DNA of 42,655 nt from Candidatus Pacearchaeota archaeon (GTDB lineage Archaea; Nanobdellota; Nanobdellia; Pacearchaeales; GW2011-AR1), in the NCBI GenBank assembly GCA_016186375.1, contig JACPLS010000057.1, positions 1 to 42,655 on the forward strand, written 5' to 3'. The translations under genes and the position numbers were made by a program. The notes beneath the pieces are model-generated. The model had not been told where the DNA came from and ran no database searches. It saw only the letters and a list, made by a program, of their open reading frames with translations. This document shows, one piece after another, positions 11,978-14,547 of the stretch (positions are counted from its first letter, which is position 1; the number at the start of each line of letters is the position of its first letter).

Positions 11978-13051
11978 ATGATTCAAGATACAAGTAAAGA
12001 TTTAACGGCAATATTTCAAGAAAGGTTGGAAAAAGATACTCTTGAGCTGTCGGCAATTGCAGCAGTTGATTTGTTTCAATTAATAAGTAGAGGAGAATAT
12101 GATTCTGAAAGTGGAAAAAATAAAGTTGAACACTATGCCAAAATACTTCCAAAACTTAGAGAGTTGTGCAGGACTTCAGGAGAAGATGTTGCAGGCAAAT
12201 TAGAGAAATTGCTTGTAGAAAAAAATTTCGGGACAAATGGCGAATTATCACGAGTTTTAGAATATGGAGAAATCAGACAATTAACTAATCCACAAATTAA
12301 TACAGAAAATAAGGATAGTGTTCCGGCTATTAAAAAAGAAGGCGAAAATGGACCATATCGTGGAATAACTCCTATTCTTCTAGATATGGGTGTTAGTTCA
12401 GGAATAGTAAACAAAGCTACTGCATATATTATAAAAGCAATTGAAGAAAATAAGAATGAATATCTGGAAAGAAATCATCGAGGTAAAGTTAGGCGAAAAT
12501 TCATTGATAATGAGACTACTCGAGCCATATTTAGAGGGCATATTGAAAAAGGAGGATTTCCATTGGGAGAAAAAGTAAAAAAAGATATAAAATATATTAG
12601 CTTAACTGCACTTATTTATGAGTTTAAAATACCCTTTTCAAAGAGATATGAAGTTGCCAATTATATTAGATCTTGCACTTCAAATGAAGAATACTTAAAG
12701 GGGCATTCAATTCCTTGGTCTCGTGGATTAAGATATGAGGATACATCAGAAACAAGAGATCACATAAAAAAGTTATTACAAGAAGGAAAAATTACCTCTG
12801 ATGAAAACCAGAAAAATGACTTTTCCAATCCAGATAGAAAAGATGATGAAGGAATTTTACAACAAGAAGATTTAGTGCCTTATTCTCCTTTAAAGATTGA
12901 ACAAAGAACTGGTATTTCTTTTGATTTTATAGAATCAAATGCACCTTCATTGCTTGAAGTAAAAAATTCTGGGCCAAATAAATCGAAATGCTATGACCCG
13001 AAAAATCTTCAGAAACTTGTTCAAGCATGGGAAAATAGACAAAAAACATGA
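11978..13051 (+). CDS. hypothetical 357-aa charged protein, translationally coupled to the sigma factor gene
   Basis: It is a clean ORF whose stop TGA overlaps the next ATG (ATGA at 13048-13051). There are three HTH-looking segments (GVSSGIVNKATAYIIKAI, FKIPFSKRYEVANYIRS, EQRTGISFDFIESN). No family recognised. Confidence 0.6.
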   Translation: MIQDTSKDLTAIFQERLEKDTLELSAIAAVDLFQLISRGEYDSESGKNKVEHYAKILPKLRELCRTSGEDVAGKLEKLLVEKNFGTNGELSRVLEYGEIRQLTNPQINTENKDSVPAIKKEGENGPYRGITPILLDMGVSSGIVNKATAYIIKAIEENKNEYLERNHRGKVRRKFIDNETTRAIFRGHIEKGGFPLGEKVKKDIKYISLTALIYEFKIPFSKRYEVANYIRSCTSNEEYLKGHSIPWSRGLRYEDTSETRDHIKKLLQEGKITSDENQKNDFSNPDRKDDEGILQQEDLVPYSPLKIEQRTGISFDFIESNAPSLLEVKNSGPNKSKCYDPKNLQKLVQAWENRQKT

Positions 13052-14547
13052 TAGAATATGATCTCTGCGATATAGCTGAACCATCAAGAACAGAACTTGA
13101 GAGTATTGATTATGAACGGGAAGGTAGAGATTATAGTGATAAGAAAAGACATCAATCTTTAGAAGATAATTCAATAGATAATAAATACGATAGTGATATT
13201 CAAGAAAATAAATTGTTTAATCATACCATTCTTACCCCTCAAGAAGAAAAAGATCTCTTTTACAATTTAAGGCAGGCTGTACAAAGTTACCGAGAACATG
13301 TTTCTCTTGTTAGTCTGGGTTCTTTAAGGCTTGCTCAAATAGCTGCAGAAGCATTAAAAAGAAAAAATTCTATGGAAATTCAGAGAAGATTTAGTTCTCC
13401 GGAAAGTGTAATTGATAGCATGTTTATTGCAGCAAGTGAAGTGAGTGAATTGTACCACGCAAATGTCGCACTACTTTCTGGAAACTCTGGAAGTGGATTG
13501 GGTCTACAAAGGATGATAGAAAGAAATGCACAAGAATCTCAAAAACATATACTTCCCTGGCAGCCAAGAATAAAAACACTCGATGAAAGGCTTGAAGGAG
13601 ATGTATACTACCTCGGCTTACTTCAATATAAAGCAGGATTTAAAAAATGGAAAAGAGAAAAAGAAGAGAGTAAAATGGGTAATGAAGAATTTCAGCAACG
13701 ATGCAAATTAATTATGCTCGATACTGGACTATTTCCAGAACAGCTCGCTGAAATTGTTGATGCTGCATCAGAATCTCAGGGAAAATATTATCAAACTAGG
13801 GAAGAAATTGCCAGCAAAAATCACAAACTTATAAAATCAATAGTTTTGAAATATCCGATATTAGACGGGACTTTTATTTCCCAACAAGATTTATTTCAAC
13901 GCGGATATATGGGATTGCTAACTGCAATTGAACATTTTGATATAGATAGAGGTTATAAACTCTTGACTTACGCCACTTGGTGGATTAGACAAGCAATATC
14001 AAGGGAGATATATAACACAAGAAAAGGGATATATATACCTATTCATGTACAGGAAAATTCAAGAAAGATAATAGGTATTATTAATGTACTAAGGCAAAGA
14101 TTAGGTTCAAATTATAAACCCTCACTTGAAGAACTTGCAGAATTATCTGGATTAAAGATTGATTCAGTAAAAAGTGCTTTAGCTTCCAGAAATAAAGTAT
14201 TATCATTTGATGCACCTTTAGATTCGGAAGGCGAGGCAACTTTTAATGATGTTCATTCTGATTCTCATTCTCCTAGTCCAGATAAAGAAGCAAATAAATC
14301 AGATATACAAAAGAGAGTCAAAGATTTACTAAATACCATTTCTGAACGAGAGCGTTTAGTTTTAGAAATGCGCTTTGGACTTACCGATGGAATTGTATAT
14401 ACTCTTGAAGAGATTGGAGAAAAATACAAAGTAACAAGAGAAAGAATTAGGCAAATTGAAGAAAAAGCACTAAAAAGACTCCGTCACCCTGGAAGACTTA
14501 AAACCTTAGGAATCTCACGAAAAGAACTACCTTTAATTTTTTCTTAA
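13048..14547 (+). CDS. rpoD: RNA polymerase sigma-70 family factor (RpoD/SigA-like, regions 1.2, 2, 3, 4)
   Basis: Region 2 is [41 protein letters not shown]. Region 3 is [17 protein letters not shown]. Region 4.2 is [31 protein letters not shown]. Region 1.2-like is [13 protein letters not shown]. Confidence 0.85.
   Translation: [499 protein letters not shown]

Follow-up and report, generated by a model that had tools for sequence, protein, structure and literature searches.

The archaeal contig JACPLS010000057.1, a stretch of 42,655 nucleotides (nt) that is called the window here, carries two adjoining genes that form the subject of this study. The first encodes a protein of a small uncharacterised family, termed the partner, and the second encodes a protein of the sigma-70 family. 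Sigma factors on the one hand and TBP, TFB and TFE on the other are textbook markers of bacterial and of archaeal/eukaryotic transcription initiation, respectively. The two genes are as follows.

11978–13051, plus strand: partner gene, 357 amino acids, an open reading frame (ORF) with no internal stops
13048–14547, plus strand: sigma-70 family gene, 499 amino acids, an ORF with no internal stops

The sigma start codon and the partner stop codon share the tetranucleotide ATGA, as a first-pass annotation of this DNA had noted, and the sigma gene is, as judged from the sequence, translationally coupled to its partner. Other loci (L002 and so on) and proteins (P0122 and so on) are cited below by labels of this analysis.

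The occurrence of a bacterial-type sigma factor in an archaeal chromosome is already published, because Castelle et al. (2021) reported sigma-70 genes in DPANN archaea. These genes (family fam00359) were described as "particularly prevalent in Woesearchaeota", and mis-binning was ruled out. In the same study, an anti-sigma factor was not identified, the mechanism was unclear, and no bacterial polymerase was reported in DPANN. A passage of a review (PMC6126073) credits the first description of archaeal sigma factors to Rinke et al. (2013), and a 2025 study (PMC12647753) described divergent "rpoS" genes on predicted DPANN viruses and on a prophage. No functional or structural work on DPANN sigma genes was found in the literature. 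New here are an obligately linked partner, a separate sigma clade with its own N-terminal module, and a residue-level pattern of what has been kept and what has been lost.

Conserved linkage of partner and sigma

An exhaustive phmmer search with the partner against 1.84 billion representative proteins yielded seven relatives (P0122–P0128) with E-values of 2e-23 to 3e-4, 24–36% identity and lengths of 285–483 amino acids. In each of the seven cases, a gene for a protein with Sigma70_r2 and Sigma70_r4 domains follows directly downstream in the same orientation, and the downstream sigmas that are complete (six loci) are 459–512 amino acids long. The junctions are tight, the gap being −4 nt in the window and +11, +2, −17, −17, +1 and +6 nt in six other loci. 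The linked contigs carry genes for L15e, L10/P1, TFIIE-alpha, Sec61-beta, NAC, a TFIIS-type zinc ribbon, an S-layer protein and tRNA-guanine transglycosylase, and one of the loci belongs to a named Candidatus Pacearchaeota genome in which both genes are annotated "hypothetical protein". The partner–sigma operon has so far been found only on DPANN-type (Woesearchaeota/Pacearchaeota-like) archaeal contigs.

Pairwise identities among the partners and among the sigmas are correlated (Mantel r = 0.78, p = 0.002), so the two genes have moved and diverged as a pair. The first-pass annotation had proposed that the sigma gene is retained with its partner and had pointed to other genomes as the place to look for the same two-gene module. 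Both suggestions are upheld: seven further loci were found, all on archaeal contigs, and the eight independent loci share gene order, tight junctions and co-divergence.

The gene neighbourhoods differ among loci, with the exception of L019 (module at 4424–7463) and L020 (10842–13589). In both of these loci, whose sigmas are 62% identical, the module lies just upstream of the L15e gene, and this shared position points to vertical inheritance within that subclade. Toxin–antitoxin or transposase genes occur within a few kilobases of some modules, namely PemK (L016, 4872–5204), HEPN with a nucleotidyltransferase, ParE and a Y1 transposase (L022, 1–2715) and PIN (L025, 10582–10959), which may simply reflect what is usual in DPANN genomes.

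Domains and phylogeny of the sigma protein

Comparison with the sigma-70 profile models placed three domains above their Pfam cut-offs.

Amino acids 256–321: Sigma70_r2 (PF04542), 48.2 bits against a cut-off of 24
Amino acids 336–413: Sigma70_r3 (PF04539), 44.7 bits against a cut-off of 25.3
Amino acids 427–480: Sigma70_r4 (PF04545), 62 bits against a cut-off of 24.1

The Pfam models for region 1.1 (PF03979) and region 1.2 (PF00140) gave no match to the window sigma. Solved structures of bacterial primary sigma factors were matched at E ~1e-50 over amino acids 213–487. The cut-offs of the NCBIfam RpoD equivalogs lie far above the scores of the window sigma (at best 218.7 bits against 555 for NF004208, and 208 against 354 for TIGR02393). 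Along the gene, the protein is laid out as follows.

13048–13221, plus strand: acidic N-terminal tail (amino acids 1–58), mostly disordered, with the family motif EPS..EL (model confidence, alignment A1 and translation)
13222–13797, plus strand: region 1.2-like helix NH.ILT.EEE and a family-specific all-helical module (amino acids 59–250)
13798–14025, plus strand: sigma region 2 (amino acids 251–326; Pfam and column comparison with 119 bacterial sigmas)
14041–14286, plus strand: sigma region 3 (amino acids 332–413), including a region 3.2 linker of low confidence (Pfam and model confidence)
14326–14508, plus strand: sigma region 4 (amino acids 427–487), with an intact −35 recognition helix TRERIRQIE (Pfam)

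The first 58 residues contain 17 D/E and 8 K/R, in keeping with the acidic tail and uninterrupted frame described in the first-pass annotation, and the predicted local distance difference test score (pLDDT) falls below 50 at amino acids 1–9 and 26–59. The motif NH.ILT.EEE (amino acids 58–68) lines up with the bacterial region 1.2 columns L-L-..-E. Residues of the N-terminal module that are invariant in the family are H59, L62, E67, F115, E134, W171, L178, G184, G190 and P230. In word-indexed and PHROG searches, no relatives of the N-terminal half were found outside the partner-linked family; the word-indexed search with amino acids 1–250 gave no matches and missed even the parent protein, so it is a weak null.

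The AlphaFold2 model of the sigma has a mean pLDDT of 79.6, exceeding 90 over most of amino acids 60–260, and shows the helical N-terminal module packed before region 2. With this model, Foldseek matched the sigma-70 structures of E. coli, Vibrio and Caulobacter at E ~1e-15 over about 480–510 columns, compared with about 250 columns for short SigA-type chains. Since the fit extends over some 500 columns of the large sigma-70 proteins, the N-terminal module of the model probably occupies the place of region 1.2 and the non-conserved region of large primary sigmas.

A side observation concerns the N-terminus at three other loci. In L013 (1012–2454), and also in L014 and L015, which come from three independent sequencing runs, the sigma frame overlaps the partner stop codon, meets a TAG after 29 codons and continues in the same frame into NHRILSPDEE. 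The gene may be a pseudogene, the stop may be recoded, or the sigma may be shortened at its N-terminus.

A word-indexed search with the full sigma returned bacterial RpoD only among the 120 matches listed. Among the matches listed, the best score to a bacterial sigma was 198 bits and covered the C-terminal half only (36–44% identity), whereas the partner-linked sigmas align over amino acids 4–494 with 31–37% identity and up to 297 bits. In a neighbour-joining tree of 8 archaeal and 119 bacterial sigmas (356 columns, 200 bootstraps), the eight archaeal proteins formed one clade against the 119 bacterial hits in 185 of the 200 replicates, and distances inside the archaeal clade were about twice those among the bacterial sequences.

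The protein cluster of the window sigma has one member from one contig, and a scan of metagenome and viral contigs with alignment A4 gave no further family members. Two region-1-less sigmas that are near the window sigma by distance (P0103 and P0027) were set aside as coming from non-archaeal, probably bacterial contexts; they adjoin NIF3 or CT398-type genes, and a partner gene upstream is absent. A degenerate DNA pattern for PW-x6-L[DE]-x2-[LMV][EQ]G[DE]-x4-G[LIV] picked out six loci, all of them chance matches.

Functional residues kept and lost

The eight archaeal family members were compared with the 119 bacterial sigma hits column by column. E. coli numbering, used in the list below, equals the window position plus 122 in region 2 and plus 120 in region 4. 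In bacterial sigma-70, Y430, W433, W434, Q437 and R441 serve in −10 recognition and melting, and R584, E585, R588 and Q589 read the −35 element.

−10 capture and melting: G424, K426, Y430, W433, W434 and I435 invariant; Q437 and R441 in seven of eight
Extended −10: no invariant residue; H455 in six of eight, E458 in seven of eight
Region 4.2 recognition helix: R584 and Q589 invariant; E585, R586 and R588 in seven of eight

In window numbering, Y308, W311 and W312 are invariant, and Q315 and R319 are found in seven members, the window sigma included. In region 4, R464 and Q469 are invariant, E465, R466 and R468 occur in seven members, and E465 and R468 are present in the window.

A different pattern was seen at Q406, E407 and N409, which the mutational literature on sigma-70 places on the face of region 2.2 that contacts the clamp helices of beta-prime. 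These three residues are 100% conserved in the 119 bacterial hits, and the window has Q, R and Y there. The Q406 position is S in six of the eight archaeal members; the E407 position, R in the window, is I, M or T in most of the others; and the N409 position, Y in the window, is N in five of eight. The motif A444-D-Q-A-R-T449 is likewise variable in the archaeal family. The lost positions (Q406, E407 and the A444–T449 motif) are 95–100% invariant in the bacterial set.

By this column comparison, the putative DNA-reading and DNA-opening determinants are strongly constrained, whereas the classical contact to the bacterial polymerase is not. The single-strand-capturing aromatics are invariant at about 33% family identity, which argues against a mere duplex-binding repressor and against neutral decay. 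The sole close pair of sigmas (L025 and L034) differs at 1 nt in 1467, and the ratio of nonsynonymous to synonymous substitution rates was uninformative. Thus, the first-pass statement that the ORF carries every sigma-70 hallmark holds for regions 2, 3 and 4 and for the DNA-contact residues; it does not hold for Q406/E407 and the ADQART motif, which are not conserved, or for the RpoD cut-offs, which are missed.

The partner protein

The partner had no family match in Pfam, NCBIfam, PADLOC or PHROG and no sequence match to solved structures, and a word-indexed search returned the partner alone. Lacking any sequence family match, it is also without a known anti-sigma class: neither the partner nor its seven relatives showed an anti-sigma domain, a zinc-binding motif, an RsbW/SpoIIAB kinase fold or FlgM in Pfam, NCBIfam and PADLOC. 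An AlphaFold2 model built from the eight-sequence alignment has a mean pLDDT of 62 and a predicted template-modelling score (pTM) of 0.28, and it is locally confident in three places (pLDDT per 10-residue block for the first two).

12002–12217, plus strand: N-terminal helical hairpin (amino acids 9–80), helices 9–37, 44–66 and 71–80, pLDDT 62–81
12584–12787, plus strand: winged-helix-like unit (amino acids 203–270), with a strand, three helices, two strands and a helix, pLDDT 73–88
12869–13048, plus strand: C-terminal small alpha/beta unit (amino acids 298–357), pLDDT 72–85

Conservation is highest in the hairpin and in the C-terminal unit, and the middle units number one to three across the family. 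The motif PYS..KIS.RTGIP..FI...Y.P.NL..L..W in the C-terminal unit is kept in all eight members. The modelled hairpin is a candidate protein–protein interface.

Foldseek searches of two structure libraries with the partner model gave local matches of 55–60 residues, in both cases overwhelmingly to MerR/excisionase-type winged helices, with probabilities of 0.87–0.91 and E-values of at least 0.18, which are not significant. The matches included GlnR (probability 0.87), CarH, BldC, RacA, Xis, gpNu1 and SoxR, as well as MerR-like, Xis and AlpA proteins of phages. A fold search of BFVD returned weak helix-turn-helix matches only. The order of secondary-structure elements fits a strand-helix-turn-helix-wing fold, and the partner is probably a DNA-binding protein; the fold evidence for its winged-helix units is weak. 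The first-pass annotation had seen three helix-turn-helix-like segments; two of them are confidently modelled as winged-helix-like, while the third (amino acids 130–190) has low model confidence and the segments are not significant internal repeats by sequence (z ≤ 2).

Genomic setting, insertion site and expression signals

The surroundings of the module are archaeal, and three further features bear on its origin and expression.

11932–11939, plus strand: TATA-box-like element tttataaa, about 40 nt upstream of the partner ATG (read from the sequence)
11891–14558, plus strand: segment without counterpart in the closest sequenced relative (tblastn synteny, direct reading and blastn)
14602–14672, plus strand: tRNA-Gly(TCC) (ARAGORN and Rfam), a landmark in the flank outside the module

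NCBIfam equivalogs in the flanks are archaeal (uS12_E_A, uS7_euk_arch, aEF-2 at 903 bits, fen_arch, archaeal DnaG and archaeal-type SecD/SecF), and the family-B DNA polymerase of the window matched NCBIfam "DNA polymerase II" at 728 bits. Relatives of the neighbouring SecD all come from metagenome-assembled genomes of Woesearchaeota, Pacearchaeota or "Nanoarchaeota" (10 archaeal loci, one genome per GTDB species). These equivalogs, together with regions 2, 3 and 4 above their Pfam cut-offs, substantiate two earlier claims, namely that the other informational genes of the window are archaeal and that a sigma-70 gene lies in an archaeal chromosome. The described layout was also correct: the pair is divergent from the minus-strand genes of the surface-protein operon (11007–11834 and 6102–10973), and tRNA-Gly begins 54 nt past the sigma stop codon.

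The closest sequenced relative, L002 (JBBSYK010000011.1), has SecD (88% identity), SecF (82%), the surface protein (82.5%) and its 275-amino-acid neighbour (56%) in the same order. There, about 415 bp including tRNA-Gly extend from the 275-amino-acid gene to SecF, and the partner and sigma are absent. By blastn, the conserved flank blocks are the divergent promoter (11875–11890) and the tRNA promoter (14559–14579), between which L002 has an AT-rich spacer of about 170 bp in which nothing of the module could be recognised. All 10 syntenic archaeal loci (L002 and nine others) lack the pair. The most parsimonious reading of this sequence comparison is that about 2.67 kb (11891–14558) were gained in the window lineage once it had separated from the nearest sequenced species. 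At the insertion, neither terminal inverted repeats nor a target-site duplication could be credibly identified.

The guanine-plus-cytosine (GC) fraction is 0.31–0.34 across the region without a break, and the codon-usage and tetranucleotide distances of the pair are within the range of the native genes of the window. There are strong grounds to reject a chimeric assembly, the possibility that a composition check had been proposed to address: both flanks are collinear with L002, the boundaries fall cleanly between genes, and the composition is native. The native composition also argues against recent import from bacteria. Horizontal acquisition had been suggested for the sigma gene; a recent transfer from bacteria is not borne out, as the sigma belongs to a divergent clade on archaeal contigs and has its own N-terminal module.

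An A/T-rich TATA-like box (tttataaa or tttaaaa) is present 30–60 nt upstream of the partner ATG in the window and in most other loci, and no −35/−10 pair is evident upstream of the partner genes in the window or the other loci. With a TATA-like box and no −35/−10 pair, the operon resembles an ordinary archaeal transcription unit, and tttataaa at 11932–11939 is likely its archaeal-type promoter, as far as the sequence can tell.

Several side observations were made in the same region. tRNA-Gly precedes SecF in L002, L003 and L004. About 320 bp between tRNA-Gly and SecF (14680–15005) are absent in L002, where the spacer is 78 bp and its last 38 nt match; this stretch holds a 39-amino-acid ORF (14808–14927) and may be a second small indel at the same tRNA. 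In L004, a Pacearchaeota genome, ARAGORN called a putative tRNA-Pyl (CTA) at 9373–9462 abutting tRNA-Leu(CAA), which may be a miscall or a suppressor-type tRNA. The 1623-amino-acid secreted/surface protein encoded on the minus strand (6102–10973) is very rich in N-x-S/T sequons, and its Cys-rich neighbour of 275 amino acids (11007–11834, minus strand) diverges much faster. Elsewhere in the window, an AbiEii nucleotidyltransferase toxin gene (27101–27862) overlaps an upstream ORF (27849–28556), the two together (27101–28556, minus strand) resembling an AbiE-type toxin–antitoxin pair. A 5S rRNA gene (1702–1816, minus strand; Rfam, 68 bits) stands alone, with no other rRNA genes in the window.

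Interpretation and alternatives

Our leading explanation, which we hold with about as much belief as doubt, is that the locus is a DPANN-type two-gene regulatory module made up of a probably DNA-binding, multi-domain partner and a divergent group-1-like sigma-70 homologue. The operon would be driven by an ordinary archaeal TATA-type promoter, and partner and sigma would presumably be produced at a constant ratio and work together as a complex. The hairpin of the partner may hold the sigma while its winged-helix units add DNA contacts or control, and the partner may fill the place of the regulator or cofactor missing from the survey of Castelle et al. The complex would act on transcription by binding, and probably opening, promoter-like DNA. 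No polymerase other than the archaeal one is known from genomes of this type, so the most plausible docking site would be a re-adapted surface of that enzyme, for example the clamp coiled-coil of Rpo1.

Several points weigh against this explanation. First, we infer all of its central steps, that is, the association of partner and sigma, DNA binding and polymerase binding, and the absence of a bacterial-type polymerase rests on the literature rather than on these genomes. Second, the fold matches of the partner are not significant (best E = 0.18 and 0.83) and its model is weak (pTM 0.28). Third, matches to sigma-70-type promoters in the 20 kb around the locus occur at the chance level (92 against 91 ± 12 expected). 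Fourth, the sigma frame has one in-frame TAG in L013, L014 and L015. Furthermore, because the search for loci started from the partner, a sigma is established for each partner detected, whereas a partner for every DPANN sigma does not follow. Finally, the module is rare and patchy and is missing at this site in the closest relative, a pattern that suits an accessory or mobile role no less than core regulation.

A more specific form of the two-gene regulatory module, to which we give only a small chance, would make sigma and partner a working initiation factor of the archaeal RNA polymerase. By way of a re-adapted region 2.2, domain 2 of the sigma would sit on the clamp coiled-coil of Rpo1, the partner would take the place of the absent bacterial flap contact or add upstream DNA contacts, and the two would open −10/−35-like promoters in parallel to TBP/TFB/TFE. 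If true, a bacterial-style initiation pathway would have been grafted onto an archaeal enzyme.

Among the alternatives, the sigma-like protein and its partner might work independently of any polymerase as a sequence-specific DNA-binding repressor, activator or chromatin protein. The loss of the clamp-helix contacts Q406 and E407 and of the ADQART motif, the intact helix-turn-helix of region 4 and the lack of a reported bacterial polymerase in DPANN (Castelle et al., 2021) all fit this explanation. However, the −10 capture and melting residues Y430, W433, W434 and K426 are invariant at about 33% identity, which is hard to explain for a protein that binds duplex DNA only, and the full region 1.2-2-3-4 architecture is kept together with the 3.2 linker. 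We therefore regard polymerase-independent regulation as rather unlikely.

The position of the partner gene also recalls a sigma/anti-sigma pair. RsbW and SpoIIAB are bacterial anti-sigmas that are encoded upstream of their own sigma genes and sequester the sigma until a signal releases it, and the partner could be an inhibitor of this kind. Obligate linkage, tight coupling and co-divergence would be expected of such a pair, and Castelle et al. (2021) noted that a controlling anti-sigma is missing in DPANN. Yet the partner matches none of the known anti-sigma classes in Pfam, NCBIfam and PADLOC, and its confident domains resemble DNA-binding winged helices rather than sequestering domains, so that sequestration by the partner appears unlikely.

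The pair might instead be a cassette, whether mobile, selfish, viral or for defence, that spreads among DPANN genomes and works for a genetic element or against viruses; we judge this unlikely. In its favour, the window has an insertion that the closest species lacks, the neighbourhood of the pair differs at nearly every locus, and toxin–antitoxin or transposase genes are near some modules (L016, L022 and L025). Divergent sigma genes are also carried by predicted DPANN viruses and a prophage (PMC12647753), and the MZA defence system employs a sigma-like protein. Against this, the pair is not flanked by genes for an integrase, a capsid or other parts of an element, and neither terminal repeats nor a target duplication mark its ends. 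A search of 2.9 million viral contigs gave only a phage sigma of 29% identity and no partner; the MzaA profile scored 206 bits where the cut-off is 800, and PADLOC gave no match for the partner. The shared position of L019 and L020 next to L15e points to vertical inheritance, and the composition of the pair is native.

Interference between domains, in which the sigma would be delivered to or act on the RNA polymerase of a bacterial neighbour, is very improbable: although the −10/−35 reading residues match those of housekeeping sigmas in bacteria, it is precisely the positions contacting the clamp helices of bacterial beta-prime that have diverged, neither protein has a secretion-related domain in Pfam and NCBIfam scans, and there is no evidence of a bacterial host. 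An artefact or decaying remnant (a chimeric assembly, a bacterial contaminant fragment or a neutral pseudogene-to-be) would fit the absence of the pair at this site in the closest relative and the single-member, single-contig sigma cluster, but has a negligible chance in view of L002-collinear archaeal sequence on both sides within one contig, clean intergenic boundaries, unbroken composition and codon usage, two long intact ORFs in a 31% GC genome and orthologous modules on seven other archaeal contig sets.

Sigma genes of DPANN have been noted since 2013 and remain unexplained, and the partner gives a handle on their function. As the module consists of two small genes, it offers a co-expressible and testable two-protein system for complex formation, DNA specificity and polymerase binding. 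Action on the archaeal enzyme would make the pair a natural hybrid of both initiation systems; otherwise, the sigma scaffold would have been re-used for another DNA-directed task.

Comparison with known systems

Compared to the DPANN sigmas of Castelle et al. (2021), the window gene is alike in being a sigma-70 gene on an archaeal contig from a Woesearchaeota/Pacearchaeota-type genome. It differs in its conserved partner, of which the published accounts of fam00359, compared by description only, make no mention.

MzaA of the MZA anti-phage system, which is among the NCBIfam and PADLOC matches, likewise has a C-terminal half of the sigma-70 type, preceded by a long N-terminal part that is not sigma-like. 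However, the match (NF041931, 206 bits against 800) is to the sigma domains only, the other MZA components are absent, and the partner and the neighbouring gene have no PADLOC match.

The partner units resemble BldC, RacA, Xis and the N-terminal domain of GlnR in size (about 55–60 residues) and superpose with target-normalised template-modelling scores of 0.48–0.57 and a root-mean-square deviation of about 3 Angstrom. In contrast to these proteins, with which there is no sequence match and only a non-significant E-value, the partner has one to three such units plus an N-terminal hairpin and is tied to a sigma gene.

Compared to rsbW–sigB and spoIIAB–sigF, the partner is without a kinase-type, zinc-binding or FlgM-like domain, and its modelled domains are winged-helix-like. 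The arrangement is the same in that a regulator gene, here a presumed one, lies directly upstream of the sigma gene and is translationally coupled to it.

Compared to RpoD/SigA, the window sigma has a different module between regions 1.2 and 2.1, its family has lost Q406, E407 and A444–T449, and it resides with archaeal host machinery. It shares with them regions 1.2-like, 2, 3 and 4 in the same order and the segments [11 protein letters not shown] and TRERIRQIE, and its model superposes on E. coli sigma-70.

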